Assembly (NCBI GenBank): GCA_008632985.1
Contig: QPGO01000004.1
Span: 434,001-498,000 of the forward strand
Source of the DNA: Psammoneis japonica
Lineage: Eukaryota
Direction of reading: 5' to 3'
DNA length: 64,000 nucleotides
In this document: one piece after another, positions 1,325 through 41,421 of the stretch
Layout: each line of letters starts with the position of its first letter
Position numbering within the stretch: the first letter of the stretch is position 1
Translations under genes and position numbers: made by a program
Notes under the pieces: generated by a model
Told to the model about the DNA's origin: nothing
What the model saw: only the letters and a program-made list of their open reading frames with translations
Databases searched by the model: none

Positions 1325-1723
1325 GGTGCCTTTTGTGCCTCCGACATCCGACATGCACACCACTCCATCCGCATCCGTTTTTCCCGCCGACGACGTACAG
1401 CCCGAGAAGAAGTATCGATGGTACGTACGATACTTATTAAAAATGGAAGACGATAGCTCTATCTGCTCTCTCTGCATACTAGAGAGGGGATGATTCATAC
1501 TGTTCACGCCAAAAGGCACCAGGAATAGCTGTTGCGACGAACCATAAACATCAAAATTCATCTCTCTGTCTAGTCCAACCAACGTGGTCGCCGTGATGCA
1601 TTTCATGACGTAACGTCAGAAGACCAAAGTTGGTCGTGAGATATAAACACTGAAGTTATACTGTACGGTCCTCATGTCAAGAAATGATAGCTATTGTATG
1701 GTACAGTAAATTCAAATACTAGA

Positions 1724-2858
1724 TTATACATTTGCTGGTCCTCGTGCCCCCATTTTTGCGTCCCCTTCCTGTGGATGTGGATCAAACTCATCAAAGGAAC
1801 TAGGCATGTCACTGCTGGGACCCCGATAAATGTCTCTCCAGTTTTGCGCATGAACCTCATCCAGCACCAAACTAAAGCAAGAAACGAGTGCATCGCGTTC
1901 TCTTGGAGAATTGGCCTCCAAGTCCAACGATCCCTCCTTGGTTAGAAGCGAGAAGCAAAGAGCTTCAGATACGCTTGCATTTTCTACCCGTCGAAGTGCC
2001 GTTGTCTGTTTTCCTACATCCACATACATAATGTGTGAAAGAGGCACTTGATGAAGCTTTCCCATTTTCGGTTTCGACTCCTTTTGTCCCTTCTTTCTAG
2101 TTTCTGTTCGCCAGGTAATGGCACTTTCTGTTAGCTGAAGACGCACCGTCTTTGGTTTGCCGCGAGACCCGTGCGCGACAATCAATACACCCGGATCACG
2201 GAGTTGCTGCATGGCAGCTGAAATTACAATTTCGTCGTTTTGTTGTAAATCAAGCATAGATTCGTTCGTCCTGGTATTGGTTGTTGTAGTTGAGTAGGTT
2301 GCAACACTAGCAGATCCAGCGGCGCCTAAACCAATTCCCTGCAGTTGGCGGTGATTGGGATTTACAGAAATAGAGCCGCCATGAGTTCCGCCTGTAATAA
2401 TGGATGCTGAACCACCTCCGGTCGAAAGCGAGTGCGTCTAAGAATCGCGTCATTGTCACGGGATGGGAGAACGAACAAGGGCAAATTTGTTAGACAATTC
2501 GAAATTAAATAGAATAAATACAGGCAGTAATAAGAAAATTACAACCAAGGCAAAATGGCGTTCAAAACGACAACAAAAGGCACAAAAGAAGCATGAAAGG
2601 ATACCGACAAGAAGTGCAAGACTAATTGTAAGCTCTCATGCATGGTAGACGCCAGCTATTGTTACTCACCGTGCTTCTTCCGCCTCTTGAACGCCCGCGA
2701 GCGCTCCATGCGTATCGTTTCGGATATGCTTTAAAATGATGAACACGGAATCCCCGTGGCAGTAATAAGTAGAGAACAAAGAGAACAAGCAGTATAAAGA
2801 GGAAGGCTGAGAAATGAAGAGGGTCGATGCCCAGCGGTCCCACGGGTCTGTCGCCCAT
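1724..2858 (-). CDS. Membrane-anchored PH-domain protein (PLC-type PH), 2 exons (2858-2670, 2437-1724)
   Basis: Exon 1 has a hydrophobic TM segment (FSAFLFILLVLFVLYLLL). A GT..AG intron (2669-2438) joins it in frame to the PH-like ORF (...LCFSLLTKEGSLDLEANSPRERDALV). Confidence 0.7.
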
Positions 2859-3241
2859 GGTCGCGTCGTGTCGTCTTCGTTTTGCTGGATGGAGACAGAG
2901 CGCACTGCCGTGTTATGTTCTGCGTAAGTTCTACTGATTAGCAGTATGGAGACCCAAGCATTCTTGACTGACTGTCACAAAGGGGAATGAACTTCCTTCG
3001 ATAACGTAGGTGCTTATAAAAATGATTTCCTACAATGTTGTTTACACGTATAACTTGGAACGATATGAGATAAGCAAAATGTATTCAGTCACTAAGCTTA
3101 GATCAAAGTCACTATCATAATCAGTGTACTCACCCGAACTCGCCGGTTGGCATCGCTTGTCGATGTCGGAGCAAAAAATCTTGCGAGAAAAAACTCGTCG
3201 CATTTCTTCGGCATTTGTCACTGCAAAAGACACAAGCAACC

Positions 3242-4319
3242 ATGGCGTCCGATCAGATCCGACAGATGGTGAACTTCATCCTCCAGGAGGCACACGAAAA
3301 AGCGAACGAAATTCGTGTAAAGGTACGTGTTGTTAGATCATGTTGTTGCGACGCGGCGGTGCTGCCGGTGCTATCCAATGCCACGAGCATAATGTCAGCG
3401 AGATTCCTGGCCATGTGTGGAGAATAGTATTCTTTCTACGTATATCAGGAATCCGACATTTTTCGGCATTTTGCCGAAGCGATCTTTGACGCACACGGAA
3501 ATGCTGTCGTTGGATGTGCTTCAAGCTTCTTTTTCACTATGAGGGTATGACGGACTACCTAAATGGGAATGAAAGACTGATTTCATGTGGCGTTTGTTGT
3601 TTGTGTCTTCATTTCGTTCAAGGAATACAAACATGCCGATGTTTCTGACCGTTGCTCGGAAGTTGGCGACCTCGCCTCTCGCACTATCAAATTTTGTAAG
3701 CTAAACTTTTCGATGCTCACATTTTCTTCTTCAGACCGAGCACGATTTCAACTTGGAGAAGCAAACCCTGGTGCACGAGGCTAAGCTCAATATTCAGGAC
3801 GAGTTTGCCAAGAAGGAGAAGGATCGTGAGATTCAGGAGCGCATTGCTCGTTCAGCGGAGATTGGAGAATGCCGTGTAAAGAAAATGAAGATCCGTGACG
3901 AGCTTCTTCAAACATTGTTGCAGGAGGCTGGACAAAAGTGCGCCGTTGTTGCCATGGGCCAGAACTACCCTCTTTTGCTGCAAAAGCTTATTGTGCAGGG
4001 ACTCATTAAGATTGAGGAGAACGAGGTAACAGTCTTTTGCCGTGGTGAAGACGTTGCGATCGTCAAGAAGATTCTTCCTGCTGCCATTAAGGAGTATGTT
4101 GACATTATGGAGCGGGAATCTGGCGTCAAACTTAACCCAGTCGTCACCCTCAACGGCGATCGCAGCAAAGATTTGGCCGAAACCACTTATGGAGGCGTCA
4201 TGTTGACTGCTATCGCTGGAAAGATTATCTGTGACAACACTATGGCTTCCAGGTTGAACCTAGTTTACGAGGAGCTTCTTCCGTCAATCCGTGCCATTCT
4301 TTTCCCCGAAGATCAGTAA
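3242..4319 (+). CDS. ATP6V1E: V-type H+-ATPase subunit E, 2 exons (3242-3322, 3735-4319)
   Basis: MASDQIRQMVNFILQEAHEKANEIRVK|TEHDFNLEKQTLV...GGVML...GKIICDNTMASRL...IRAILF, with a canonical GT..AG intron. Confidence 0.95.
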
Positions 4320-5112
4320 GAGAAATACTACAATGTAAAAACTATCTGGCAAACAATGAGCACGTTCATTGGAAGATCGATCGAGACACTTTGTAAATGC
4401 TAGGTTGAGAAGCAATAAATTTGTATTTATCTCCCCACTTATGCGTCTACAACAGTGCTGGAGTTTCTGTGGCGTGTACCGTGCGAGGCGGTATTGTAAT
4501 TATTGTTTGATGTGGGCGTCGAAGGAATCTGTTCGACTTACGTCTACAATTTCAACATGTACAGCACCACTAATTGCGTTTACTCAGAAAAATCTTCGTT
4601 TTGCGAGAACCAATCTCTGCAGCGCTCGACGGGACGGCGACTTTGGCAATGCCGCTTCGACCTGAAGCCTGACTAAAGCATTTTACTTGTCGTTTCAGCT
4701 TCACGGACGACGATTCATTGGGCGGGCGTTTCTCGGCTGTGAACCCTCACATTACACCCCTGTACTAGTTTTGTGGTGTTCTCAAACTAACTCTAGAGTG
4801 TTAACGCTACAGGTAAGAATACACTGATTGGATGAACGACGTTTTTAAAAGGTACGGAACGCATTCGAATGCTACGGTATCTAATTCCTTGGTGTGGTGG
4901 TGGATGGAGGCAACGCGCGGGTGGGCGGGGTGGGGCCCCAGGAGGAGTCCTTCGCGCAATGCTGGGCTAAAGAAAAAACTCAAAATTCACATATGAACAG
5001 AACCAATCGATCCCAAAATCTAACTGTGCCTTGCTCTCTTCAGCGTGTCGAGACGACCCTACGTGTACATGCATGTTGTGCACACCCAAACATTGAAATG
5101 GATGTCATCTTC

Positions 5113-5895
5113 TCACGCTTGGCGCTGAGTGCCGGTGGAAGCCTTGAGGACTTGTAGTTGAGCATTGAACTGACCAACCTGGTACGCGACGAGTGCAACG
5201 AAAGCTAACCGCCTCTCGTCAGATACATAGTCTTCTTCAACGGGGAGTTCTAGTTCGACCCTGCGAACGACATCATTGTCGTGGTAAAAGCAAGCACCAC
5301 CAGGAGTTCCGTTTGAGCCTACCGGTGTATACTGCGTGATGCACGTCTGGTCCACGCTGTCAAAGTTTGGTGAGTCCTTGCCTATGGATTCAGACACACC
5401 CATGTAGACATTGGATGAGATTGGACCCATCCAGAAAGATTCTTCTTCTTTGGCCAGCTCATCACTGAGAGCGAACTTGCGGTTGTTGATGACTGTACCA
5501 ATGGGTTTATCACGAGAATGACCATAAACGGTAGTGCTCCTTCTCGCCCTGCGGCTTGGACGTACAGGTCGCATATTTTGCCACTGCGCGACGATCAGGC
5601 GGTCTTCGTTTAGAACCTCGGACCACGCATTGTCACTTGGAGCTCCGGAGGTGCTTCCCAGAACAAACGTCATAACTTCAAACCCTTCTTCATCGTGACC
5701 AACATAACATTGCTCGTTAGTTTCATCATCGTCAGGCAAAATGTTAAGTACTACTCTGGACGATTCGAGGATGATTCCGGGTCGTGCATCTTTTGTCGCT
5801 GCTGATTCGGTCGGAACATACGGAGTAATCTCAGTAGGACTCTCCAATGCAGCCTTAGTTGACATGGTTTCGTAGTTCACTACTGCTGCTGTCAT
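5113..5895 (-). CDS. Hypothetical protein
   Basis: 260-aa ORF with normal host composition (Tyr present); no recognised domain. Confidence 0.45.
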   Translation of the reverse strand: MTAAVVNYETMSTKAALESPTEITPYVPTESAATKDARPGIILESSRVVLNILPDDDETNEQCYVGHDEEGFEVMTFVLGSTSGAPSDNAWSEVLNEDRLIVAQWQNMRPVRPSRRARRSTTVYGHSRDKPIGTVINNRKFALSDELAKEEESFWMGPISSNVYMGVSESIGKDSPNFDSVDQTCITQYTPVGSNGTPGGACFYHDNDVVRRVELELPVEEDYVSDERRLAFVALVAYQVGQFNAQLQVLKASTGTQRQA

Positions 5896-6399
5896 GATTT
5901 AAGATAAGGAATTAGCAAGAACAGTAGTTTTAATGTCTCTTTGTGAGGGTGGATATCACAGAATATTTTGAAAGATCAAGCTAAGACGGTTACACGGTCA
6001 CTGAACTTGGCGAATGAGGAGTGTCGAAGATCGATGATGCTCCTTCTTCTCAACGAGAACTTGTTTTCATTCGTGATGGCACCAGGCAGTGACGTGGACG
6101 TGATGACGTCATTATGTCTTCTTGGACATTCGGGGGTACCGCCCTAGCCCTAAAGAAGTGCAAATCGAATCGTGACGTTGGGTTGTCAGAATGCATGCCT
6201 CCCATCTCTTTTATCCCCTTTCACAGCCTCCCTCGCCTCCTTGGTGTACTCTGTTGCTGGCCAGCATTTGTCTCCGGCTGCTTTTTGCCTCGTGCTCCAA
6301 CGCAGGCTTCTTTGACTCCCGATCTCTGCTGGAGCGTGGACCAAATCCCACTCCGCGGCCTGTGTGCAGCAGAGTTGCCGACCCCTGCAGAGACCACCG

Positions 6400-7150
6400 C
6401 CATGCTCTCTGCTGTCGCTTCCCATCACACAAGACAACTCTCTCAGTTCATGCCTTCCTCCCAATGATTGGGTCACTTGCTGGTCCTTTTTGCTCCAACA
6501 AGAACTGGCCTCATCAGCACCCACCAGACCATGACCATGAACCTCCTGCTGATCTCTTTTCTCACTTGCCCCCCAAACACACCCTGCCATGTGTTGGTGT
6601 GTGCTTTGTCCCTGCACATGACACTGCCTCGCCAGCCACTCACACTTGTCTGGCCATCAGTGCAACCATCCTGAAACCACCTCCCAACTCAGCTCTTGGC
6701 TTGCCTGCCCTGCCCTGCCACCAACTGCACTGCACCGAGGCACACCATGCAAGCACCAAGAGAAAGTTTCATGGCAACCATGAAACTGGCCAAGAAGGCC
6801 CAACAATGATGTCTTCTCTCAATGATGCAGGCGTGCACCTTTTCCATTCACCACTGACCATTTTGGCTCTGCTCTTGGACACTTTGTGCACCACATCTCC
6901 TTTTCGATGATCGGCAGCACCGCCCTGTGCTGCTCATGCCACCTGCACCCCCTTTGGATTCTGAGACTTGTTTCCAGCACACCCATGCCTCCTGCTGTGC
7001 TGCCTTGTCCCATCTGAAAGGCTCCCCCTGTGATGTCTTCCCAACAGCCACTGTGGTGTGGACCAAAACCTCATTGTCTGGATTTGGCATCATGCCCCGT
7101 GCATCCAACCCCTGCCAGCGGTGCTTTCAGAGGCTCATCTCTTGGTCATC
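6400..7150 (-). mobile_element. Possible highly degenerate Gypsy RT/RNase H relic
   Basis: Fragments DARGMMPNPD, GEPFRWDKAAQQEAW and RAEPKWSVV resemble the Gypsy RT thumb/RNase H linker; frames are broken. Confidence 0.3.
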
Positions 7151-9585
7151 AGATCCCTTGCTGACTGGCTTTTTTGCCATTCATCTACACTCAACAACAA
7201 CTTGCTTGCTGCACCCTTGCAACACCAAAGCCATCCCATGCCTGTGTGATGTGCCATTGCATCATGCCTGGTGGTCCTCTGTCTGTCATTCACACTGCAC
7301 CACCAGGCAACGTGGTGCGCAACCTCCTCACATGTGTGTGGTGCACAGCTGAACAGTGCAGCAGCAAACCTCATAAAAAAAACATGCCTCTTTCGTGCTT
7401 TTCTTTTTTTGACACCCAAGCCACTGGGGCCCAAGCTGGGCAGCAGGCCAGATGATGGTGGGGTCAGCAAAACTGTGTCACTGACACTTGTTGACTCCTT
7501 TTGCTTTGAAGAGAGAGAGCAAAAAGACACTGCCAAAAAACATTTGGGGGGGGGAGGTGCCAGCACCCTGTGCACAAGGAGGCTCAGAGCTTTTTTTGGA
7601 GGTTGGGGCAGTTGTTTGGCTGGGTGCATGATGCTCTGAGCTCAAATCATGTTCATGATCCCTGCCAGCTGCCAGAAGCTCTCATCTCATCTCCACCTCC
7701 TTGTGCTTGACTTCTTTGTGGAGAGCACTGCAGCAGGTGTGTGTGCAATGTATGCTCACTAACAAGCCATCAGCACAGAGGGCCATGGGGCTGATGATGG
7801 CTGATGTCCAAGGCATTGGACCATGCCTGAATGCCGTGTCTTCATGCTGAGAGACATGGACCCACACTCCTCATGTGAGGACATTTGCAAAAGATGACTG
7901 CGCTGCTCTGGCACAGCTGTCTTTGCACAATGTCCATGTTGCAGCAGCCTTTTCTGCACATGGCAGTGCACAGACATCTGGTTGGAATGCAAGCACATGT
8001 GCAATCATGTCTGCAGATGCAACTCAATGGGAGAACCAACCAAAAATGTGGGTGTCACAAATGTGTGGTGCATGGACATCTGGGTGGAATGCAAACAAGT
8101 GCAATGTCTGAAAAGTTTTGTTGCTCTTGTTCAGAATTGATCTGTGAAGAGTTTTCATCAACCAAGCAAACCAGCAAGAAGTTGGAAACCAGAATCAAGA
8201 AAATTTGGCATTGCAGTGCATGAGATCTTGATGAGATGGATTTTTTGCACCTCTGCAACACAGTCATTGTGAGCATTGTTGTTTTGACAGTTGAGCCCAG
8301 TTGGCAAAGCAGGAAATGACAATGAATGTCACATGTGACTTGCCAGCTTTTCATCTCAACAACAGCGCACGTGTGTGACAAATTGCTGACATGGTTCATT
8401 TCTGAGAACAACTGTGCAAATCAATCTCGTTCACTCTTTTTTTGTTTGCTGTTTGATTTGTGCATTTTACAATTTGGGCTTCTAACAATGTTGACTTTCT
8501 GTGCTGTGCATTCTTGTTCTCTGCTGCCTGCTCCCTCTTGTCTTTGCTCTGTTGTTTTGTTTTGTTCTCCCGTTGTCTTTTGCCATCCACAAAGCATCTT
8601 GTTGTTGCTTCTTGGCTGTGCTGGCATTGTGTCATGCTCCAATCAGTGTCTGTGCTCCAACTGGCATTGTGCTCATGTCATCAGTCTTTCAACAAGAGCC
8701 AGTTGTTTCTGCAAGTGTCGCTCATCATTGCAAGAGAGGGCACAGCCATGCCTGCCAGAAAAAAGCAGAGAAGTCATGAGTTTTGCACATTTGGCTTGGG
8801 AACCTTTTGGGATCTTGCACTCACCAACAAGAACAGCTGTTGCAACACACCTTCCATTCGTGGAAGGTTTTGGGAGAAGGTTGGCCCCAGCACCTCAGCC
8901 ATCATGAGCCAAGAACAAAGCACTTTTGCTGCTCACCTTCAAACCCAAATGGATCACATGCTTCCCCTGAAGGCCTGCAACAACTTGTTTGCATGACCCA
9001 CCCTTGATGGTGCATTCTCCAAATGCCGCAATGTGCTCAGCTCTGAGTCTGTTGTCAAAGGCAAGCCATTCGCGCATTTTGGTGTGTTCTGTCATGTTTT
9101 CCATTCTGAGTGCACACTGCCTCACAACTTTTTGTTGTTGCCACCTCTTTGACAGGTCAGCGCACCACTGCAGATTTGTGTGAGGATCCTCCTGCCAACA
9201 TTGTGTGGCCTTTGTCACAAGAAGAACAAAATGCTGCCACACGCCATTGTGAAGGAGCTCTTCTTTGTGTGCAGCATGCCACTTCGGATGATTGGCTCCA
9301 TCTGCACGGGTCTTGTTCTTTGTTCCTGTTGCCATTGAGATCCACTTGAGTCACACTTTCTTCATGCCAATGGGCAGACAGGGTGAGAGTTGCTCACACA
9401 GCTGTCATGGACTTTGCTGTCAAGGATGTGAGGCCAGCTGTGACTCGCATCATGGAGAGTGCTGTGCAGGAGGCACTCACACAGCTGATCTGTGTGAAGT
9501 GTTGTCCCCTCATTTGCCTTTTCAAGGATCACAACAATGACTTGATGGAAAGCCTCCTCCCTTGAAGATTGCCTGCCTGTCCCTG

Positions 9586-9964
9586 TGCAACATGCGTTGT
9601 CATGTGTGTGTCACACATGCACATCTGTGCATCAAATAAAATTGCACTCCAATCGCACGTCAATCGTGGGTTCGTACGAAGCACAGATCGATCACACAGA
9701 AGTGATCGGATGTCGAGAATCGCAAATGCGATCGCACGATGATGTTGACATCTTGTGTGTCAATGTCAATCGCATCCGGACAATCTGTTGTCACGATCAT
9801 ATTCTCCGAAAGGCCTTTTGTCTGTAGGAGCAGTGCAAAAGGTTTAGGCTGTTGAGAACCCGTTCGGAGAAACCCAAAATGATTGCGCAGAAACAATTCT
9901 CACAATTTTCACTTTTCGAACTTCGTTCTACTTTCGTTTGCACTCGTTCTTCAAGCACAGTGCA
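9586..9964 (+). repeat. Gypsy 5' LTR
   Basis: Colinear with 14331-14709; starts TGCAACATGCG and ends GTGCA. Confidence 0.93.
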
Positions 9965-10000
9965 TTGTGCACACACACCACAGAAGGCAACAAGTTCAAG

Positions 10001-11154
10001 ATGAAACTTTCACCTCAAGCAACCAACGCCAAAACTTCGTCAAGGCAGGAGAAAATCGTTCCTCAACCGCTGGAATCGAATTCCGAGCCGAAGAGCCTCA
10101 AACCGAGCCAGCACCTCAAGATGGAGCAACGTTTTCATCCCGAGAAGAAGGATGGCCACACCTGCACCATCAATGTCAAGCATTACAAGAAGCAAGGTGT
10201 CCCCAAGTGCATCGAATTTCTCAAGAGCTACGATCAACTTCCAGTGGGCCAGAGTGTCAGGAAGCAATCCGACAAGTTCCGCCTCATGCGCATGTCACTC
10301 CAAGGAGATGCTCCACGTGCTTTCTAGAATGCGGCAGTGAACCTTGAAGACGAATCTGCGGAAGGAAGCTTTGAGAAATGCCTGCAGCACCTCACGAGGC
10401 ATGTGTTTCCCAAGAATGCACTTTCGGTGCAGAAACGCTGTTTGCGTCGCGATCTCAAGAAGCCGGAGTCCATGAAAGCACGCGAAATTGCTGCTTGGGT
10501 CCAGGAAGTCAACGAAGACCTCAAGTTCTGTCCTCCCTTTGGGAAGGAACAGAAGATCAAGGATGACGAGCTCAAGGACATCCTCTTCAATCTTGCACCT
10601 CGAAAGTGGCAGCGTCAGTCGACCGTCCAAGGTTTCGAAATTTTGAAACATGCCCATGACGAGTTGGTTGAGTTTTTGGAGCGCCTGGAGGTCGCAGAGG
10701 ACATGTTCGATGGCATTCATGCCAAGGCTGATGGCAGTGGCGGCACTGCATCAAAAGCCAAGAGTGGTCACCAACGTGGTTCCAAAAATGGTCACCAACA
10801 TGGTGCCGAAAAATCTCAGTCCGAGAAGTGGTGCATTTCATGCGAGAAATCCACTCATGACATGGACAAGTGCTGGTCGATCAAAAGACTTGCAAAAGAA
10901 CGCCGTGGAACTGTGAACCCAATCCAAAACGGCGCCGTTCAAATGGCAATCGCATGTGGTCTCGTTGCGATGACGACAATGCCGCTCGCAAAGAAGAGTT
11001 GAATGCCACGGCGATCCAAGCAGTTCAAAAAATGCTCAAAGCGAGTTCCTCATACAATGACAAGAAGCGCAAGAGCAAAGGCTGTGATTCTGACACCCTT
11101 GACGAGGAGAATTTTCAGTTTGAAAAAATGACATGCAGTGATTCTGAGGAATGA
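10001..11154 (+). pseudogene. gag: Gypsy gag (in-frame TAG at 10325, frameshift near 10900)
   Basis: ORFs 9938-10327 and 10337-11002 are in the same frame; degenerate zinc knuckle WCISCEKSTHDMDKC. Confidence 0.75.
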
Positions 11155-11217
11155 CTTGCACCGCAAGAGGAGTCTTGCGCTCTGCTGGACATTGGGAAGC
11201 CCAGAAAAAGGGCCAAA

Positions 11218-14200
11218 GTGATTCATGCCAGTCCAGTGGTCATCGCTTGCATGAACACCTCATTGGGCAAAGCGAAAAACAAGCCTCTGCACGTTCTCCT
11301 CGACAGCGGAACATCGTCAACCATGATTTTGCGCAAATTCACGTGGAAACTCAGAACCAAAGTGTCCGCCACCAAACTCTGGGAAACCAAAGCAGGGCTC
11401 TTTACGACTGACAGCAGATGCAAAATCCAATTCTCCTTGCCCGAATTTGACAAACACAAGACAATCGAAACAACGGCATGTGTTGACAACTCCCCTTCTT
11501 CTTCGAGTCGTTATGATGTGATCATGGGATGCGACTCAATGTCAAGTCTTGGGATGACATTGGACTTCTCGAATGAAGAGATTAAATGGGAAGATGCAGC
11601 TGCTCCCATGAAGAATGTTGACACACTCTTCGATGCCGATGCATTCAAGTTGATTGCCGATCATGTTGAGGAATCTCGTGCAGTGATCAGTCTTAATGAC
11701 AGGGTCAATCGGATCCTTGACTCAGACCATCACGCTGCAAACCTCAATGATGTGACTGCAGCAGCTGCCCATCTAACTCCTGAAGAGCAGAAGCAGCTGA
11801 ACTTCCTCTTAAAAAGATTTGAAAACCTTTTCGATGGTTCTCTGGGCAAATGGACCGGGAAACTGGTGGATTTGAAGTTGAAATCGGGCGTGAGTCCGTG
11901 TCATGCCAAACCATTTCCCGCACCACAAGCCTTGGAGGCGACCACTCGTAAAGAGGTTGAAAGACTGTGCAAGCCAAAGGTCTTGAGAAAAACAAATTGT
12001 TCTGAATGGGCAGCTCCATTGAGTCCGATTTCCACCCGACTTTCGAGAGCTGAATAAGAGGCCAATGCGCGCTCCATTTCCTCCACCCAACATTCAGGAC
12101 ATGCCACAGAAACTTGAAGGTTTCATGCATGCAACATCTCTAGATTTAAATGTGGGACATTGTCATGTCGAGCTGATGCCAAATGCACGTCGTTTGTGCA
12201 CAATCGTCATGCCTTGGGGCAAATGTGAGCACTGCAGACTCCCCATGGGAATCTGTGGAGCTCCAGACATTTTTCAAGAGCACATGAGCGAGCTCATGGC
12301 AGGTCTGGAGTTCATCAGAACTTGTGTTGACGACACATTGTGCCTTGCAAAAGGTGATTTTCAAGACCACCTCAAGAAGCTTGAGACGGTGTTTTTACGC
12401 CTGGAACAAGCCGGGTTGAAGGTCAATGCCGAGAAGTCCTTTTTCACTAAACCCGAAGCAGACTGTCCAGGCTTTCATGTCACCCGCAATGGCATCAGCC
12501 CGATTCCGAAAAAGGCAGAAGCAATTCACGCGATCACAACTCCCAAAACTCGCAAGGAATTGCGACGCTTTGCAGGTGTGATCAACCACTGTCGAGACAT
12601 GTGGCCTCGACGATCTCATGTTTTAGCTCCTTTAGCCAAACTCACTTCCACGCAAGTAAAGTGGCAATGGACCGAAACAGAACAAAAAGCCTTCGAAAAT
12701 GTGAAGCGCATCATCTCCAAAGATGTGCTGTTGTCACATCTGAACTTCAACGCACCCTTTGAGACATGTGCCGATGCCAGCAATTCTCAATTGGGGGCGG
12801 TCATCATGCAGAAAAACCGACCAATTGCCTTCTACAGCCGCAAGCTGAATGGAGCGCAGACGCGTCACACCACAATGGAAAAAGAACTGTTGTCCACAGT
12901 GGAGACGTTAAAAGAGTTCCGAAATGTGCTGTTTGGCCAACAGACAAATGTGCACACGGATCACAAGAATCTCACACATAAAAATTTCACAACGGACAGA
13001 GTCATGCGTTGGCGTCTAACAACAGAAGAATGCAGTCCCAAAACAACATGCCTTGAGGGCAAGGCAAATGTTGTCGCAGATGCGATCAGCCGACTTGCTG
13101 TGAAGAAAATAGAACCTGTGGAAACCCTCAGCACAGAAGAGTCAGCTGAAAAGGTCCCACCAAAATCCTGCGACAATGTCTTTCCGTTAAATTACAAAGT
13201 TCTTGATTGCGAACAAAAATGGGACAAAGACATTCTCTCCAAATTGTCAAACAATGCGTTTCATGCGAAGACTTTTCGTGGAGGCGAGCGAGACCGGTTG
13301 CTCATGTGTCATGAGGACAAAATTGTCGTCCCAAGGACGTTGCAAAAGGCAGTGATAGATTGGTGTCATGCGCACCTTCTTCACCCTGGCACAAATCGAA
13401 CAAAAGAAACAATCTCACAACACCTGTGGTGGTCCACCCTGCGTGAAGACATACGAAAATGTGTGTCGAGATGTGAGACGTGCCAAAAATTCAAGAAGAA
13501 ACACAAGAAATGTGGACATTTGCCTCCCAAGTGCGCAGAATCCGTGCCATGGGAACGACCATGTGTGGACCTCATTGGGCCATACAAAATGCGTCGTAAG
13601 GGAAAGAAAGAACCCCCAGTCCTGAAATGTTTGACAATGATTGATCCGGCAACCGGATGGTTTGAAGTTGTGGAAATCCCAAATGAGGAATCCATGACTG
13701 CAGCTGGACTGTTAGAACGAACATGGTCAAGCAGATGTCCTTGGCCATCGTCAATTGCATGTGACCGTGGAAGTGAGTTCATCGGACACCAATTTAAAGA
13801 AATGGTGCAAGATGATTGTGGCATTAAAGTCAAGCCTGTGACTGCACGAAATCCACAAACAAATGCAATTGTTGAACGCGCACATCAAGCACTGGGGAAC
13901 ATGCTCCACACATTTGATTTGCAACACACACCTCTAGATGCTGAGGATCCCTTCGCTGGAATGCTGTCAGCAGTGGCATTTGTGGCACGTTCTGCGCATC
14001 ATGCCACTGCGCAAGCTGCACCAGGACAACTGGTCTTCAACAGAGACATGACATTTAACGTCCAACATGTCGCAGACTGGAAATCAGTCCAGCAGTGAAA
14101 ACAAGAAATCACAAACAAAAACAACGCTTGAGAGAATGCTTGACGTGCTCCTCACACGTGCAGAGCAGGAGAAAAGACACTGCTCAAGAAAGACTTGCAA

Positions 14201-14300
14201 AAATTAGAACAGCCCTGTGTTGGACCGCATGTGATGACAACGGCACACACTGATGGCACAGTGCAGATCAAACGCGGTGACGAACAATGCCGTTTAACGA
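11218..14300 (+). pseudogene. pol: Gypsy pol (protease, RT, RNase H, integrase), disrupted
   Basis: Protease LLDSGTS; RT RLPMG and TCVDD; RNase H DASNSQLG, AFYSRKL, TDHKNL; integrase HLLHPG...CETC, DRGSEF, NAIVER. Frame break at ~12030-12065 and stops after 14096. Confidence 0.93.
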
Positions 14301-14330
14301 CTGACTCTAATGTGCAATTAGGGAGGCGAG

Positions 14331-14709
14331 TGCAACATGCGTTGTCATGCGCGCATTGCACATGTGTGTCTGCATGTCAAACAAAATCATGTTCCAATCA
14401 CACGTCAATCGTGGGTTCGCACGAAGTGCAGATCGATCACACAGAAGTGATCGGATGTCAAGAATCGCAAATGCGACAGTGCGATGATGTTGACATCTCA
14501 TGTGTCAACATCAATCGCATCCGGACAATCTGTTGTCACGATCACATTCTCCGAAAGGCCTTTTGTCTGCAGGAGCAGTGCAAAAGGTTTAGGCCATTGA
14601 GAACCCATTCGGAGAAACCCAAAATGATTGCGCAGAAATGATTCTCACAATTTTCACTTTTCGAACTTTGTTCTGCTTTCGTTTGCACTCGTTCTTTGAG
14701 CATGGTGCA
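14331..14709 (+). repeat. Gypsy 3' LTR
   Basis: Direct repeat of 9586-9964, preceded by the PPT and followed by TSD CCTG. Confidence 0.93.
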
Positions 14710-16149
14710 CCTGAACCTGCTAGCAGCAATGTGAATGACAACAATGGCAAGCACACTGGGATAAAAAAATCATTTCATCATGAGTGTCCCATTGTCCCAT
14801 TTCAAGCAGAAACATTGGCAGAGCAAGGACATTGTCCACTTTACAAAGCAACATGACATTGTCATCTCATCTGCTGCAAAGCATTGGATGGAATCTTCAA
14901 CAACACCAGTGACCCCAACTCCAGGCACAGGCTGGGGTGTCAAATGTTGAGTGTTGCTTTTGATGAACCTGCTGCCATGGCTGCTGCCATGTGAGCAGCA
15001 AGCGGTGCACTGGCCATGGACAACATTCCGGCTGGACCAACTCTTGAGTTTTTGTTTTGTGATGAAGCACCAGGCAACAAGAGCAACCTTGTCCCTGCAG
15101 ATCACATTGATTTCCCCCCACCATCTGTGTGACCCATGGACCTGGGTGATGAAACAGGCGATGATGATCATGACAACAAAGATGAAGTGTCAGATGACCA
15201 ACAATCTGCAGAACCTTGAGGTTGAGCACAACAGCAGCAGCATTCTCTGTTCTCCACCCGCCTTTGACTGACAGTCTGTCTTTTTTGCTGCAACATTGAA
15301 CAAGCTGTTTTGCACCTCACCACACAATGGCCAACTTCATTGAAATTCACATGTTTGTGAAAATCTCTTCAAAGTCATGCATTGGCTCTGTCATCCTCTC
15401 TGGCTTTCATGCAGATTGATCCACCCCTCATCCATCCCCACATGGCACAGGTCACATCTGCTGACATTTCTCTGTTGTTTTGAGTTTGGTTGGGCCACCT
15501 TTCCCATTTTCACAATGAGGAGACAAGGCTCCACACTGGCTGCTGTTGTGGGATGCCTGATCAATGGCGCGCGCCATTGGCTTCATGTGCCAAGTCAGAA
15601 AAAGAAATTCATTTTCCATCCACTCTGACATGGGCAGTGCTGCAGTCAAGAGCACATGTGCCTGGTTGAGCAAGTCACTCAAATGACTCAGGCAAGTCCC
15701 CATGTGGACTGCTCCATCATGACAAAATGATCCGGCACACAAACAAACCATGGTTTTTGCCTGCTGAAAAATTGCCATGGGTTGCAACACATGATTTGCA
15801 GTTGGAATGCATGCAACATTGGCGCTCTCTTTCAGATTGCACCAAAAGTCCAGCAAACCTCTCCATCTCAAAGAAGTGCTGCAGACTGCAGAAAGTGCCC
15901 ACATGTGTGCCATCAGCCCTGCCATGGCACCCACTGCCAACAACAGCCAGACTTCCACATGGCTTGTCATCCATGATGCAGCACAAGTCTTTGTCTCCAT
16001 CTGCCAAGTCTTTTGCCTGGCTTCAAAGGTTTTAAGTGGTTTCCTGCCACTTTTCTGCTTGTCCATCAACTCATCATGCAGCAACCAGTCCTCGCACAAT
16101 GTGCCCAGCATCATGGATTCACTCACATTTGAGATGCCAGCTTTGGTGG

Positions 16150-17200
16150 AATCTGTCATTTTTCCTTGTTCATGCTGCTGGCAAGCTTTCAGGTGAGCTT
16201 TGCAGATCCAAACCTTTCCATCTCTGTGTTCCTTGGTGTGTGGACAACTGGCACACTCAACCTTGGATTGCCCCTGCTGCCAAAATGAACTTGACATTTC
16301 TTGGAAGTCTTGTTGGCCTTCTTTCCTTTTGAAACCTCTGGTTTGCAGTCTCTGGCTTTGGTGTTCTTCTGTGTTAACTCCAGAAGCTTCTCTGTGGCAA
16401 CATTTGAGGAGGAGTTGTCCTTGCCAAGAGAGCTGGTGCCAGTTTGGTGCTGAAACAAAGGAGGTGCCTGCAATGAAGGGGTGGCAGAACCTGTTCATCA
16501 CCAACCATTTCTTCTCCTTTTTTTGACCTTCACCACAATGGGTTTGTCTGGCTCCCATTGTTTGTTGCTTTGAGTGAATGCCACCCATTGCCTTCAAAAG
16601 TGGCGCAGCTTCCTTGCAATGCTCTGCAGTTTTTGGATGTGTGCAGGTGGTGCCAGCTTGAGGAATGTGGTCACAAATGGCTTGTTTTTTGTTTTTTGTC
16701 AAATGGAACAGTCAATGACTGAACAGATTTTGGAAGCATCATCAACTCCAAAGCAATGCTGACACATGGGTCAGGGAAAGAAAGACCAGCTGTTGCCAAC
16801 AACTGAGTGCTGCACAGCAGCTGACAAAGAAGTGCTGCCAGTGGTGCACTGTTTTTTGCTTTGAAATGGCACCAAGGAAAACAATGAAGACCCCACATTG
16901 GAAAGGGTTGGCAGGTCATGTTCACAATCAGTGAATCTGCCACAGCCTCATTTTTTTTAGTCCAACTTGTCCATTGTTGTGCTTTCTCATGAGAGCAAGG
17001 CTTTGTCATCAGCAATGCTGCCACCCACAAAATTGTGAGCAACTTGCAGCTTTGTTTTTTCTGTGCAGTTGGATTGTTGGCAGCCAGCCAGGGGCTTTTT
17101 TGCAATTGAAGACATCTTGGCAAGGAGTGGACAGATTGTCCAAAAACAGCCATTGTTGCTTTTGAATCTTGACAACAGTTGTTGATTGGACAACAAGAAA
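16150..17200 (-). mobile_element. Possible degenerate piggyBac/IS4-like DNA transposase relic
   Basis: Weak fragments (AVADSLIVNM, PKTAEHCKEA..GGIHS, KKW..NRF, Cys-rich CASC...WICKAH..C tail) suggest a piggyBac-like transposase; not verifiable by eye. Confidence 0.25.
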
Positions 17201-20200
17201 AAATTCAAATTTTGCTTGATTTGATCTCAACCAGATCACAAACTCAATTTTTGCAATGCTTCCTTGTTGTTGTCAACTTCAAAGACAACACAGTGAGCAC
17301 AAACAGAGTGCACAGCACAGCAACACACCTGGCAAAGCTTTGGTGTTTTTCACACTCTGCAAGCAAAGACTGTTTCACACTCATCTGCCACAACAGCAGT
17401 CTGAGCTTGGCACAGCTGCCAGGGCTCAACACAAATGCCGCTGCAAACCCAAGTCAAGCACACACAACCCAAACATGTTGTCACTTCAGGGCACTGACAA
17501 GGCCAAACCATCTTTGCTTGCATTGGCAGTTGATGTGGCTGACTCAGAGAGCTGAGTTTGTGACATGCACAAGGCACTCCATGCTGTGTGGCCAAAGGAG
17601 AACAACAGATTGGCTCCAAAGGCATGCTCGGTGCTGCTGGCAAGCTGGCACTGCATCACGGGCAGGCTGGCAAGCAACATTGCAGACAAACAAGCCAAGA
17701 CAAAGCAATGAAGACTGAATCTCATTTTGTGTCACCACAATGCATGGTGGGAGAACCAGCGCAAGAAAAAATGGGCATTGACCACGACAATTTGTTTTTC
17801 AGCCATGCAAATCCATCTCGCTGCATGTCACATGGGGAGGGGCAGTTGTTGCTGCCAGAAAAGGTCTTAAAAAAGCTGATGCAAGGGGAAAAAACTCAGT
17901 GTTCAAAGAAATGGGTTGGTTTTGGCACATCATGAAAACACTTGCTGGCAACTTTGACAAAAGCGTGCTGGGTTTTGACCCTTTGGACAATTGTGGGGTG
18001 CACCAAAGATGATGCGGTGGGCTCCAGGAAAGCTGGAGTTGACAACCAGATTCAGACATTGAAAGCATTTAAAACAAAAGGAGCTGTTCTTGCTTGTGTG
18101 TTGCCTTCTCCACTTTGCAGCAGAGCTGGGAGAACACAGAATTTGGGTGCAACAAGAAGATGGGAAAGAAGTGCACCACATCAAAGGCGTGCTTTTCTCA
18201 AAAGCAACAGACAGATGTTGCACAAGTGGTGCAATGTGTGTGCACCAAAGCTCTGTTGAAATGCAGCAACCCTTTCAACACTTTGTTGCTTGGCATGTCT
18301 TTGGAGAAAGCAATCACTGGCAAATCCAAGCTGGCAGATTTTGCCCAGAATTGACTCAACCACAAGCACTCAATTAAGAGGCTTGCCTCAATCCAGCCAG
18401 GTGCAATGCTTGTTGGGGAAAAATGTCATGCCATTGCTGCAGAGGTTGCACAAAACAATGCTGGGTTGTTTGTTGGAGCTGCCAATTGGAAAAGCACCTG
18501 CCACGACAGCCACCAAATGCAGCGCCAAATCCAGTGGCAGGAAACTTCAGCCCACAAAGGACCAAGTCAAGCATGAAGAGTCATGTGCAGCAGAGCAAAA
18601 CAAGCCATGTGGGGTGACTGAAGAAAAAAGGATGACCGCACACACCCCTTTGTGCCAAAAAATGTGACACAACTCAAGCTTCATCACAAGACTTTGAGAG
18701 GTGGACATGTGTCTTCTTGACAGTTGCCCAGCTGACACAGCAGCACCAGCATTGAAAAAAAACTTCATGAGCTGTGACTTGCTCTCATTGGATGACCCAA
18801 TGACAGCACCAAATCTTTTGCTTCACCTGCATCTCTTTCTTTTGAAACATTTGACAAAAGCTTCAGAGCAGAGCAGAAAACGCAATGCTGAAATGACCTT
18901 GGGCAACCTTGCTGCCAACTCTCATGGGCATTCATCCAAAAATTCCCCCTCAACACAATTGCACAATTCTCAATCAGTCAATGCAAGAGTCATGTTGTGC
19001 CAGCCAGTTTTTGGTGGAACAAAAACAAAGCAGGTGGCATCCTCCACATTGTTGGGAAAAGAGGGGTCAAGTGGTGAAATCATCAACAGAAGAGTGAGTG
19101 CAGTGGAAAGAATCTGCTGCACCTTGATGACTCTGATTTCTGGCTCCATTTCATCACCTGCAAAAAATGACAAAAGAAAATCATTTGTTTCCTTCTTGCA
19201 CAGTGCACAAAAGAAAAATGCAGCAGATGTGTGTTGGGAAAAATTCAGGCCGAACATGTGCAGTGGAGTGGGTTGGCTCCAGCCCAACACAACCAGCACA
19301 CTTTGCTTTCATGCATCTCCAAAGCAGCAGAGCAGGACAAAGACTTGTGCACACGACAGTCACTCTCCTTGGTGCATCTGGCCCAAGACAAAAAAGCCTC
19401 GTGCAAACTGTGAGAAAGACGACACATCTTCATGACAACCAGCCATTCCTTTTGCTTGCTGCCAGGCTGTTTTTGGGCTTTTTTGCACATTGCATTTTTT
19501 TGTTGCCTCTTTTTCTCTTCCTCAGATTGCACAGCATCAACAAAAAATTGGGAGATGGCTGTTCTTTGTCAGATTTTGCTCCCACAAAATGCACAGTGAT
19601 GGAAGAAGAATGGACACTGTGTTTGCTTGACCATGTGCATTTCTCACCTGGGATGAGACAACACATTGGGGCAGTGCAGGTGATGGGAGCAGGCAGGTGA
19701 CTTCTCACATGCTCGCGCACAAGGCAGAGCTTGAGCGGGAGAGATGAGCACCGGCCAGGAGCAACTGTGCCAGAGCCAGCAAATGTGTGTGCCCTTTCTT
19801 TGCTTTTTTTGCCCCCCTGACTCACACAAGTGCTGGTGTGTGTGTGTGTGTGTGCACGTGCATGACGACACGCTTGCCCCCCCTTCTCTCCCAAGGGGGG
19901 CGGTCCTGCCTCAGGACAAACAAAAAATTTTCTGTTCAGCCAGCAACTCTCCACATGGCTGACCACTCCAGGTTTTCTTTTCACAAAGTCTGTGGCAGGA
20001 GCTTGTGACACATGTGCAGGCAGGGGGGCGGCTCTGCAAAGAAAAGCCTTTTTGCCAAACAGAGCGGCAGGTGCCTCCTCAGCACACCTCTTGACATTTT
20101 GCTTTGGGGGGCAGCCTGCAGTTTCTTCAGCAGCACAACAACTTTTTCCATCACCTCACATCCACTTCTCAACCTTGAGCCAACCCTCCAGGCCCATGGC

Positions 20201-20545
20201 CTTTTTGACATCCATGCTTTGAGTCACCACAGACCCAAAGCCAGTCTCACAGAAGAGAACAACTCGTCGCAGCCTAGCCACGCAAACCACGCAGCGAGCA
20301 GGCAGGCCAGACAGCGCCAGACAACGTCGGTCGGGCCGCGGGCGGTCGTGAGTCGTGACGCACGCACGAATTCTCGGGCCGTTGCGACGCGATTGGATGA
20401 TTGATTGATGAAGAGTGAATCTCAGCAATTCTGTTGTTACACCGCAGAACGACGCGAATCTCTGAATGCGGAAGAAAGCTAATCAATTGGTTCATTAGAA
20501 CGGGGGCAAGTAATTAAAAAAAAGTTATCAGAAAAAAAAAGTAAG

Positions 20546-23296
20546 ATGGTGAAGAATCGCAACTGGGAAACTCGCACCGAGATTGCTGAAGCACGACGCG
20601 TGGCAACAAGGCAACGCAAGCAACGACGAGAGAACAAAAAAGGTGCAAAGAGTATGGTGTATGATCTTTTCAACATGATGGATCGACATTGCGGGGCTTT
20701 ACAGCGTCGATCAGCAGAAGGGGTCTCTACAACGATTCATATCTGGACAGACACTGAACATTCCGATGGACCTTCTTTGGAGGAGATTCTACTGTATCAG
20801 CGATATGCCACTGAAGAAAAGAAGTTAAAGCAACGTCGGCGCTCCTCTTCTTTTAATGAGGCGTCTCCAAAAAGTAGAAAGGGGAGGACAAGACGTTCTT
20901 GTTCCTTTAGCGAGAGTGGTTCAGGAAAGAAAACGACACGAAAAAACAGTATGGACGAAGAAGAAGTTGACGCACCGCGACTGTGTCGGGATCAGTTTTT
21001 TAACGGAGAATGCAAGAATTTTCAGCGTAAGAATGGCTGTTGCAACCATGTTCATTACGGAACAGACCTTTGTCCATCACTCGCAAGCGTTTTACAGAGC
21101 GATGAATCTCTAACTATGTCTCTGGACGCTGCAGTCGCTGGTGAATCGTTGATTGACACTGCTGTAGACCCCGAGGAAGGTGGAATGGAGATGGTGTATT
21201 ACTTTTCAATCGAACTTTTTGACAAGGGTGATAATGATCAATCGATTAGCGTCAGTGAAGCAATATCAAAGGCTCTTTTCGGAAAGTCATGCGGTCTCGG
21301 TAGCATGGTCTATGTGGCTATCGGCAAAGTTTTGGTATTTGACAGAAATAGAGACGGCCTCATCATGTCAGATAACGGGTTTGCTGTGGCTGTCCTAGGT
21401 GACAAATCGCGCCGCTTAAGGTCGGTGTCCGTAGAAAGTCATGGTGCAGAAAACCAAACGTGCAGTGAAGACGCTAGTGAGAATGACAATGACGAGTGTT
21501 ACGAACTTCAGCTTCTTCCTGGTCCCCTGTTGGAGTATATTCTGACTTTTCTACCAGTCCCTAGTGTACGTGTCATGACTGAGGTTTGTCGAGTCTGGAG
21601 TCGAGAGATTGGTACGAATTCGCCTTCCTTGTGGAAGCACCTGTTACAACGTCGAAAATTCCCGTCGCCCGACGAATCCACAATGTCAGAGGAAAACGCG
21701 AGAGACGCTTACCGAAACGAATATATTAAACACCACGGGGTGATGAGAAACGTCAAAGCGATTGGAACTGCTACCGCTGCACTCACTTCATTGCCAGGTA
21801 GACCAGCGATAAGCAAAGAATTTGTAATGCAATCCTTCTCTTCACGCCGGGGTGCCCCACAAGAGCCAAACTGTTGCGTTGGTATAAAAATTTGGTCCCC
21901 ACACCGAGTTCTCGTGGCTTACGATTTCGACTGCACCTTACGCCTCTTTGAAACAGTGGCAAAACCAGTCAGTGAAGACAATGACAGCAGCCCCCGGTCA
22001 TGCAAAGAAGTGTTGTGTCTTCGTGTGGCCAACAACTCTAGACGAAAAACCTGGACCTTGTTTGCCTTCGACTTTGACGACGATATGATTGGTTGTCTCT
22101 GTAGGGCAAGTACAGAAGAAAAGGATTCGTCCTTCTTGATCGTAATTGGCAGGGAGGATTTCCTTTGCGCAAACGGCCACGTCGAAGAAGGGACTGCACA
22201 CGTAATCAATCTTGGCGAAGCCCTTCTCAACTATATTCTCAGTTCCGACGTCGTCGACCATTCCACGCTCCGCCTCCTAGATTATATTGGAGAGCACGGT
22301 TTGGCATCTTTGGATGTGAATGCCTCTACAGCTGTTACGGCATGCGGATACGGCCGTTTATGGTGGAGATGTCCATATCGGTGGATGGGGACGACTTGTT
22401 GGTTCTGGATCGAAAGCTCGTTCTTGTATCAGCTGCAGCCGGAGCCATTGTTTGGATGGGAAGCACATACGATGCTCAGGTTGACGAACTGTCATTACTT
22501 GATATGACTCTGAGTCATGCACAATTCTGTTTGACAAGGGGCCGTCTCACAACCTGTACACTTGTTGCTGCGTCAAGGGATTTCGAGGAAGTTGTGTTGG
22601 TGGACGTGGACTCGCAGGCCATGTAAGCCAGAGACGTGTCTCAGACGCGATATCTGAAGCAGCAACAGGTTTCTTGTTGACGACTGGGACACCGCGTACG
22701 TAGTGCCATGTCCACGTACCCTTACTCCCACCGACATTGTGCATGTTAAAAATTTGTGGCGAGAGAGGGGGGGCAAGATAGAGCGAAAGGCTCTCTTGAT
22801 GTTCTACCCTTATGCAGCTGCTACCTCGGAGGTGTCGGGTATAACATTTGAACTAGAAGGCATGACCCACGCTGCCCGGATGGAATCTTTTGGAGACGAA
22901 CACGTCGTAGTCCTTGTCTGTGTCTCGGAAGTTGCACACGACGGTGATTTTGAATTTCGACAAGAGTCAATGAACGCGGTTGTCGTACATGTACCGACCC
23001 GACAAGTGCTAGGTCGCATTCGCCTCTATAGGAATGTTGATTGGTATATTCCCCAAAACCCCGAGATTCACACACCCCTCTTTCTTGATGTCGCTGGCGA
23101 TACGATTGGAGTAGGGTATGCTTGGAAGGGGGTGGTGATGACTGGCGAAACGATCAGGTCTGTTGGCTACGAAAACCAGCTCGGATGTGGGAGGGAGAGT
23201 AACAGCGCCAAGAAAAAGAAGAAGAAAAAAGGCAAAGGCAACAAAAGGGGTAACAAGAAGGATGCGTTTGTTCGAGGAATCAGCCTTTCTGGTTGA
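20546..23296 (+). CDS. F-box protein with CCCH-like zinc finger (paralogue A); split by apparent frameshifts near 22360 and 22620-22700
   Basis: LCRDQFFNGEC...CCNHVH; F-box LPGPLLEYILTFLP...VCRVW...LWKHL; basic C-terminus KKDAFVRGISLSG. ORFs 20546-22507, 22165-22626 and 22703-23296 are colinear with the paralogue. Confidence 0.75.
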
Positions 23297-23367
23297 AATC
23301 GGGTCTAGAATGGTTTTTGTTGCAAAGCTGTAACAACTATGTAAGAAGTGAAATGTACCACTCAGAT

Positions 23368-24183: not shown

Positions 24184-24572
24184 TGGTCTGAATACGACGG
24201 TGGAAAATATGAAACAGAAACGTCAACAACAACCAGTGATTGCCGAGTTCAGTTGTTGCGTTTTGCTGTCGAAGTTTGTGATCGCGAGCGGGGGACAAAA
24301 AAAGAGCGAAGAATTGACTCTATCTATCTGTTCTAAGGAAATGAGGGATTTAATTTGGGTAGCGCGAAAAATATAATTATTGAAACATCAACATACTGGA
24401 ATACCTGTATTGACTTTGTGTTTGTTTGGCTGTATCGTGGGGGCTCGACCTGATCGTGGGAAAAATCGCCGCCCAAGTGCCAACCACCTCATCAACACCA
24501 TGGTCACTCTGCCGACGATAGGATTTGCTACCGGTACTAGAGTTATTGAAGTGACCCTATTGATTTGTAACC

Positions 24573-41374: not shown

Positions 41375-41421
41375 TTGACAACCAATGAGAGGTCTGAACT
41401 CTTCCTGCACCCCTGATCCTG

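Follow-up and report, generated by a model that had tools for sequence, protein, structure and literature searches.

A Gypsy long terminal repeat (LTR) retrotransposon in the genome of Psammoneis japonica, together with a Copia element and blocks of DNA around both, carries the signature of a process that converts TpA steps to TpG or CpA. The elements lie in a stretch of 64,000 nucleotides (contig QPGO01000004.1, positions 434,001 to 498,000, forward strand), which we call the window and number from its first letter. We put the probability at roughly 0.85 that the window records a post-integration, region-directed hypermutation of mobile-element DNA from TpA to TpG or CpA, with CpG decaying more slowly across these domains. 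The target of the main process is TpA, and its products, TpG or CpA, arise on either strand about equally, site by site. The process acts after integration.

The Gypsy element lies on the forward strand between two copies of the target-site duplication CCTG, read directly at 9582-9585 and 14710-14713. Its LTRs (5' LTR, 9586-9964; 3' LTR, 14331-14709) are 379 bp long, begin with TG and end with CA, and a polypurine tract, agggaggcgag, was read directly at 14320-14330. Given the target duplication, the TG..CA termini and the polypurine tract, the element is a genuine insertion. The two LTRs aligned over 379 columns with no gaps, exactly as an earlier note on this DNA had stated, and differed at 46 positions, 45 of them transitions (25 T/C and 20 A/G) and one a transversion. 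Pyrimidine-purine steps held 43 of the 46 differences, the exceptions being columns 62, 147 and 148. Classification of the discordant steps gave 16 in which CA in one LTR faced TG in the other (hereafter swaps), four with TA versus CA, one with TA versus TG, three with CG versus CA and three with CG versus TG, whereas the concordant steps comprised one TA, 19 CG, 31 CA and 25 TG. No TA faced CG among the classified steps. These tallies bear out the counts made by eye in the earlier note (about 16 TG/CA sites, about five one-sided TA sites, about six one-sided CG sites and almost nothing else), for which we found 16, five, six and three other positions. All five one-sided TAs were in the 5' LTR, which retains six TAs to the single TA of the 3' LTR. 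Random placement of 46 transitions on the LTR produced 1.07 swaps on average and at most six in 20,000 trials, against the 16 observed. Columns 18-46 contain, by eye, 13 in-phase pyrimidine-purine units made up of six TG/CA swaps, two CG versus TG sites and five concordant steps, and judging from these letters it is plausible that the first 60 bp or so of the LTR derive from a converted (TA)n-rich tract.

A TG/CA swap is two transitions away from identity, and the ancestral step could have been either CG or TA. Hence, an outgroup was needed. For the pol gene of the Gypsy element (open reading frame (ORF) at 12023-14098, forward strand, 691 residues open, with reverse transcriptase, RNase H and integrase matches to Pfam RVT_1, RT_RNaseH, Integrase_H2C2 and rve) we took the best 60 of 120 listed homologs, which were 52-58% identical, and counted a column as conserved Tyr when at least 80% of the outgroup proteins had Tyr there. 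At the 21 columns of conserved Tyr the element now encodes Cys in 11 (TGT or TGC), His in six (CAT or CAC), Phe in one and Tyr in only three, whereas the other conserved residues were retained in 302 of 361 columns (Fisher P = 4e-11). The replacement of conserved Tyr by Cys and His indicates that TA was the ancestral step in Gypsy pol. The 77 conserved columns from which the element departs were explained by TA to TG or CA change alone in 36 cases, by CG decay in four, by both in one and by neither in 36. The composition of the frame follows the same pattern: only three of 691 residues are Tyr, and 26 are Cys and 30 His, whereas the median contents among the pol homologs are 4.0% for Tyr, 1.5% for Cys and 2.8% for His. 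The reverse transcriptase motif is YxDD, and in the translation we read, by eye, CVDD at the expected place.

Given a TA model with one concordant TA, five one-sided TAs and 16 discordant sites, the ancestral LTR would have contained about 38 TAs, the 5' LTR having lost 84% of them to conversion and the 3' LTR 97%. The hazard per dinucleotide estimated from the Gypsy LTRs was about 310 times the background outside pyrimidine-purine steps for TA and about 17 times for CpG, rough figures in that the background consists of three positions. The TpA process thus runs at roughly 300-fold over background and approaches saturation, and a single hit renders a site immune; TA never becomes CG. The six LTR sites with CG versus TG or CA, together with older CpG-free blocks described below, belong to a second, slower process (about 17-fold, CpG to TpG or CpA) that operates in the same domains, is complete in the older blocks only and had not been separated from the first in the earlier note. 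The earlier note proposed that each LTR resolved its TpAs on its own, that this took place on chromosomal DNA and that it neared saturation while background divergence was low; the proposal is supported by the conserved-Tyr columns, the rates, the saturation estimate and a related family (below).

The Copia element (41422-48532, reverse strand), which is flanked by the target duplication TCCTG at 41417-41421 and 48533-48537, provides a replicate within the window. Its outgroup consisted of 60 of 150 listed representatives. At 14 conserved-Tyr columns we found His in four, Cys in three, Phe in two and Tyr in five, and the other conserved residues were retained in 186 of 189 columns (P = 3e-10). 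The Copia ORFs (41646-47431, reverse strand, Pfam RVT_2) have a GC content of 0.57 and only 8.4 TA per kb with CG at a normal 72 per kb, and the 3' LTR (41422-41698, reverse strand) has five TAs remaining. The leader and 5' LTR (47801-48532, reverse strand, with the LTR at 48257-48532) were spared and retain 75 TA per kb. Comparison of the two LTRs gave 15 differences, of which 12 read TA in the 5' LTR and either TG (seven) or CA (five) in the 3' LTR; conversions in the reverse direction numbered zero (binomial P = 0.0005), and there were neither swaps nor CpG hits. TA is mostly gone over the 3' six kilobases of the element, the conversion boundary falls within it at about 47.4-47.8 kb, and the 5' LTR plus about 450 bp of leader are unconverted with a fully converted block on their other side. 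As one of two identical LTRs was converted and the other spared, position rather than sequence homology must have been the trigger.

A third family came from public metagenome assemblies. Two Copia proteins predicted there had the same substitutions at nine conserved-Tyr columns each: P0246 has six Cys, three His and no Tyr, and P0192 has four Cys, three His and two Tyr. A search with P0192 gave 80 loci (L001-L080) of one Copia family, in which the observed/expected ratio of TA ranged from 0.82 down to 0.08 as GC content rose from about 0.45 to 0.51. We aligned 36 of the 80, those whose match covered essentially all of the 361 residues with an identity of about 78% or higher, and dropped the partial or more distant loci. 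As reference sites we used the 40 sites that read TA in at least seven of the nine TA-richest copies, and scored them in the eight TA-poorest copies, which represent five lineages. Among the 313 cells scored, 129 read CA, 126 TG, 51 TA (16% unchanged) and seven something else, so that 255 of the 262 changed cells were CA or TG. Other dinucleotides were 68-96% unchanged in the same copies, CG among them at 71% (with 21 TG and 16 CA), and both outcomes, TG and CA, were found among the TA-poor copies at 26 of the 40 sites. The sites that are swapped among copies are TA in the least-mutated copies; hence their ancestral state was TA rather than CG, and TA did not become CG. This is the check the earlier note had proposed, whether the least-mutated copy of a family reads TA or CG, run here on the metagenome Copia family. 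A single LTR pair was found in the 80 loci (L070); it is not TA-depleted, so the swap test could not be replicated in this family. It seems that at least one further organism has the same process, the products of which are predicted there as proteins.

The elements are nested in a mosaic. The genic regions of the window (1-5800, 20401-35600 and 52001-64000) have 38-42 TA, 54-59 CG and 139-145 CA plus TG per kb, whereas the Gypsy element has 9.0, 46 and 188 and four older blocks have 1.5-3.5, 6-10 and 219-236. Across the depleted compartments TA ranges from 1.5 to 9.0 and CA plus TG from 171 to 236 per kb, and the observed/expected ratio of TA is 0.0-0.1 in discrete blocks against about 0.6 in gene regions; that of CG is about 0.1 in the older blocks. 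Added together, the four pyrimidine-purine steps amount to 231-261 per kb in each of the ten compartments, as expected if conversion proceeds by transitions only. The Gypsy element sits within one older block, the left part of which (6401-9581) has 1.9 TA, 8.8 CG and 236 CA plus TG per kb and the right part (14714-20200) 1.6 TA and 6.9 CG per kb. The Copia element sits within the other, delimited by dinucleotide composition at 36001-41416 on the left and 48601-51200 on the right. TA loss outreaches CG loss by 200-400 bp at all four outer borders (6001-6400, 20201-20400, 35601-36000 and 51401-51800). The process acts regionally rather than as determined by sequence, one Copia LTR having been struck and its identical twin spared, and it reaches 200-400 bp past the CpG-poor zone into the flanks. 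At one border, immediately upstream of an ORF starting at 20483, a 200-bp segment has 22 CG and one TA.

Not all TAs are struck alike. Of the 134 TAs left in depleted zones, 48% are YTAR (Y, pyrimidine; R, purine) and 12% RTAY, whereas the 1073 genic TAs have these contexts in 19% and 30% (chi-square P = 5e-13). In the metagenome family conversion amounted to 69% at RTAY (12 sites), 46% at YTAY (20 sites; 156 TG versus 92 CA) and 19% at YTAR (five sites). Transitions keep the purine or pyrimidine class of a base, and hence the process itself could not have created this bias. Purine-TA-pyrimidine is struck most and pyrimidine-TA-purine least, which makes RTAY the apparent favourite. In the simplest interpretation, the process prefers T-A-pyrimidine on the struck strand. 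Such a preference resembles the U-A-C of the TadA substrate, which is U33-A34-C35.

Neither outcome forms tracts. We found no runs of TG versus CA along a copy (z from -1.5 to +1.2 in eight tests, on seven metagenome copies and the window LTR) and no consistent sense or antisense bias (11 Cys versus six His in Gypsy, three versus four in Copia, 126 TG versus 129 CA in the metagenome family). Given equal TG and CA outcomes without runs, the hits look like independent events on either strand rather than processive one-strand tracts.

The sole description of TpA-directed hypermutation that we found in the full-text literature is a preprint (Mettrop et al., bioRxiv 10.64898/2026.01.13.699255, April 2026) on the alga Bigelowiella natans, studied in mutation-accumulation lines. 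According to its main text, two integrated viral regions received 231 of the 302 nuclear mutations, and 230 of these 231 were A to G or T to C, all at TpA and at about 6e-7 per site per generation, in some lines only. The same text reports 124 clusters of 1-kb windows poor in TpA and rich in CpA plus TpG, finds reverse transcriptase domains enriched in TpA-poor genes and proposes an ADAT2-like DNA adenine deaminase. By analogy of target, products and regional character, the process in the window is of the same kind. Both have a TpA target, TpG or CpA products on either strand and almost only transitions, and both are confined to discrete regions of foreign DNA (giant-virus and virophage DNA in B. 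natans, as the preprint describes them) at orders of magnitude over background. They differ in that our evidence is historical, from LTR pairs and outgroups, and theirs is from de novo mutations, and in that the targets here are Gypsy and Copia LTR retrotransposons at 70-97% saturation, whereas the nucleocytoplasmic large DNA virus (NCLDV) region of B. natans is reported to keep 3.3% TA. The words CpG, LTR, retrotransposon, Gypsy, flanking and context are absent from the main text of the preprint; its supplements or Figure 2B might hold a motif, and the supplements element lists.

The change itself is most probably T:A to C:G at TpA steps in the chromosomal DNA of inserted mobile elements, targeted locally. 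As to chemistry, a TadA/ADAT-like deaminase could convert adenine to hypoxanthine in DNA within 5'-T-A-(Y)-3', to be replicated as G, and its targeting might follow the silent, cytosine-methylated chromatin of foreign DNA rather than sequence homology. Its role would be genome defence. In its full form this proposal, of a natural double-stranded DNA adenine deaminase that prefers RTAY, is guided by silent cytosine-methylated chromatin, spreads a few hundred bases beyond the ends, can stop inside an element and is common to several lineages of protists (B. natans, the source organism of the window and the source of the metagenome Copia family), is tentative, and we hold it to be improbable in all its parts together, though a serious candidate.

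The main mechanistic rival, which we consider unlikely, is that the same TpA outcome is produced by error-prone repair synthesis, in which a polymerase-eta-like enzyme acts at WA motifs (W, A or T), for example when triggered by the T:G mismatches left by methyl-CpG deamination. Polymerase eta makes A:T mutations mainly at TA and AA in somatic hypermutation, and TA loss and CpG loss do occupy the same domains, as such a coupling would have it. However, transitions make up nearly all of the changes (45 of the 46 LTR differences and 255 of 262 changed metagenome cells), and AA steps were spared unless part of a TA (88.5% of AA unchanged in the TA-poorest metagenome copies). Moreover, TA loss far exceeds CpG loss in both young elements, with 12 TA hits and no CG hit between the Copia LTRs.

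Under ordinary deamination of 5-methylcytosine, each swapped site would once have been CpG, with one LTR decaying to TpG there and the other to CpA, which is as parsimonious as a start from TA. Such CpG decay does operate here, as seen in the six one-sided CG sites of the LTRs, in the CG ratio of about 0.1 in the older blocks and in 18 of 40 listed differences between the assembly and read contigs (below). As the main cause it is nonetheless very improbable. Uniform CpG decay at the rate set by 19 concordant CG sites and six one-sided sites predicts 0.24 discordant double hits, whereas 16 were seen (P about 4e-24). The Gypsy element is depleted in TA (observed/expected ratio 0.13), not in CG (0.80), conserved Tyr codons have become Cys and His codons, and the metagenome sites that are swapped are TA in the least-mutated copies. 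The double-hit arithmetic, the TA depletion, the Tyr columns and the metagenome family together refute CpG decay as the main cause. Methyl-CpG decay would account for the six LTR sites and the older blocks (6-10 CG per kb against 54-59 in genic DNA) and does not account for the swaps. Compared with CpG decay of methylated transposons, then, the window has the six LTR sites and CpG-free older blocks in common, at about 17 times background, but its TA loss and swaps are beyond the reach of that process.

Could the depleted DNA be a sequencing or assembly artefact, caused by the miscalling of TpA and CpG bases that are modified in silent chromatin? The block-confined, strand-symmetric pattern is what strand-specific miscalls could give, and the library type of the read run that supports the sequence, X1, is unrecorded. 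Run X1 is from the same sample as two further runs, X2 and X3, and possibly from the sample of the assembly itself, and we worked with its k-mer contigs. Of the words sampled from positions 1-10000 of the window, 85% were present in it. At word depths of 52-65, its contigs span the older blocks in pieces 0.8-3.3 kb long, each of which has 3-18 letters unlike those of the assembly; over the block to the left of the Gypsy element the depth was 52-170, and the block to its right was covered also. These contigs reproduce the TA- and CG-free sequence and, since they differ from the assembly at 0.1-0.7% of letters, are not the assembly itself. Furthermore, TA and CG are both absent, whereas independent per-base miscalls would create them, and the same signature is found in unrelated metagenome assemblies and, as reported in the preprint, in the Illumina mutation-accumulation data of B. 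natans. We regard an artefact as no more credible than CpG decay as the main cause. Runs X2 and X3 are uninformative either way: X3 does not cover the blocks at all, and X2 covers next to nothing of them, with a word depth of 0-1.4 found in two Gypsy bins. Among the 40 differences between assembly and contigs that were listed (there are 887 more), 18 were CG versus TG or CA and five TA versus CA or TG, and one dinucleotide, taking up two rows, was a CA/TG swap, located at window 16737-16738. The differences could be allelic or strain variants generated by the same processes, or assembly errors.

Editing before integration, by an ADAR-like A-to-I activity on the retroelement RNA or by a deaminase on the cDNA, with the result copied into the insertion, is less probable again. 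In its favour, ADAR-type and fungal A-to-I editing prefer U 5' of the edited A (described in PMC11156358 and in the main text of bioRxiv 10.64898/2026.01.13.699255), and PMC4866542 describes edited retroelements in vertebrates. Yet the LTRs, although made from one template, differ at 37 positions attributable to TA, both strands were struck equally (129 CA versus 126 TG) and without runs of outcomes, only one Copia LTR was hit, and TA loss runs into flanking DNA that is not part of the element. The one-strand signature common to both LTRs that such editing would leave is absent, which contradicts it. The likeness to ADAR and APOBEC (as treated in PMC4866542) and to TadA and ADAT (as treated in the B. 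natans preprint) is one of deamination, of T or U 5' of the edited A and of use in defence. The unlikeness is that those enzymes act on RNA or on single-stranded intermediates and leave a one-strand signature common to both LTRs, whereas the substrate here was resident double-stranded chromosomal DNA, struck on both strands after integration.

Finally, repeat-induced point mutation (RIP) of the fungal type, C to T at CpA making TA, so that the TA-bearing LTR would be the mutated one, is the least credible of all, for although the TA versus CA or TG differences (five in Gypsy, 12 in Copia) cannot be polarised alone without an outgroup, the elements are TA-poor, TG/CA swaps are impossible for it, the TA-bearing Copia end is at the TA level of unmutated DNA and the outgroup tests refute it by the loss of Tyr in Gypsy and Copia. 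As a system, RIP of fungi (PMC7296669) is a close parallel: a defence-like, dinucleotide-specific, transition-only hypermutation of mobile elements in the chromosome, with very high local rates and leakage into neighbouring DNA. The direction is opposite, however. RIP converts CpA and TpG to TpA and lowers GC, whereas here TpA is converted to CpA and TpG and GC rises; RIP makes stop codons and the process in the window removes them. RIP is also triggered by duplication and strikes both copies, whereas here one of two identical Copia LTRs was spared, and the B. natans target is described as single-copy.

We thus return to region-directed, post-integration hypermutation at TpA, against which several of our own observations must be set. 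The test on Gypsy pol is noisy: 36 of the 77 departures are explained by neither a TA nor a CG change, as expected of a family about 58% identical to its outgroups, and the Tyr columns went to Cys and His unevenly (11 versus six), though without significance. That TA came first at the 16 swap sites of the LTRs is argued from rate arithmetic and by analogy, both to the coding region and to a different family. The spared 5' end of the Copia element (47.8-48.5 kb) stands as an exception between converted DNA on both sides. The context preference comes from 40 sites of one family and from a comparison with genic TAs, which are under different constraints. Run X1, with its unrecorded library type, may derive from the assembly sample, and attests the sequence in reads without being an independent isolate. 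Lastly, the deaminase and chromatin steps are what we infer.

The consequences for coding sequence follow from codon logic, by which the loss of TA changes Tyr to Cys or His and Ile to Val, Thr or Met and erases TATA-like and AATAAA-like signals. Tyr is the residue for which this was scored on conserved columns, and changes of Ile, Met and Thr consistent with the logic were seen at conserved columns of Gypsy pol. TAA and TAG vanish and no new stop codon can arise, and hence dead elements keep long "ghost" ORFs. TAA plus TAG in the blocks amount to 0.3-1.6 per kb, where genic DNA has about 9 per kb, and TGA is retained. Overlapping ORFs of 150-420 residues were found in several frames within 6000-20200 and 36000-51300. 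As their abundance is due to the loss of TAA and TAG, they are not evidence of genes. The older blocks contain no recognisable protein domain, 20 block ORFs having given only chance-level matches to Pfam at E<=1, and by read word depth the blocks are mostly single-copy. A direct repeat of about 190 bp and 78% identity (36285-36462 and 37373-37559) lies inside the second older block and may be the remnant terminal repeats of an old element.

The remaining parts of the Gypsy element are those of its class. A gag-like ORF at 10328-11002 (forward strand; translation CISCEKSTHDMDKC) has a CX2CX4HX4C zinc knuckle and gave no Pfam match at E<=1, and a protease-like ORF at 11155-12057 (forward strand) gave a weak RVP_2 match (E = 0.005, under the curated cutoff). 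Paired TG..CA LTRs, target duplication, polypurine tract and the order reverse transcriptase, RNase H, integrase place the element in Ty3/Gypsy. It belongs to a high-copy family, of the order of 100-250 copies as suggested by word depth: the depth over its interior was 6,000-15,000 in run X1, where 4,855 contigs were placed, and the contigs differed over the interior by 797 transitions versus 114 transversions. At window 11642 all 21 placed contigs of other copies read TA where the copy in the assembly reads CA, which again points to TA as the earlier state. A degenerate 31-letter LTR probe gave no matches in the metagenome contigs. A loose-end consensus at 14341 has several TAs; it gave no convincing LTR alignment and hence was unused.

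The host genes of the window encode NSUN5, V-ATPase E, a GRIP-domain protein, a DnaJ-thioredoxin protein, a cytidylyltransferase, a ClpB-like ATPase and a DEAD helicase, with uninterrupted coding stretches of 1.6-2 kb. The genes of B. natans, by contrast, are split into many short exons, which speaks for a different organism here. A search of 5.8 billion proteins with a 674-residue host ORF gave 16 matches, all of them at most 38% identical and without informative names. Atlas look-ups gave ClpB-like clusters of bacteria and eukaryotes and, for V-ATPase E, Eukaryota with Streptophyta as the commonest group. A further direct repeat, of about 115 bp and 74% identity, lies at 55411-55646, with host ORFs on both strands around it. 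Rfam and tRNA scans across the window gave no matches.

Beyond the main text of the B. natans preprint, the window adds the timing after integration from LTR pairs, near-saturation in ordinary Gypsy and Copia elements, co-located CpG decay, spread into flanks, the preference of RTAY over YTAR, the signature in other public data and a boundary inside an element, which argues against a homology trigger. For annotation, the finding means that dead elements keep long Tyr-poor, Cys/His-rich frames that are predicted as proteins, of which P0246 and P0192 are examples. A natural deaminase of adenine in double-stranded DNA would, if true, be of direct interest for base editing, which relies on engineered TadA. 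If our reading is true, this would be a second eukaryotic hypermutation defence of chromosomal DNA besides RIP and one of opposite direction, A:T to G:C; in the full form of the proposal, which we hold to be improbable, it would be a widespread but overlooked "reverse RIP" defence.

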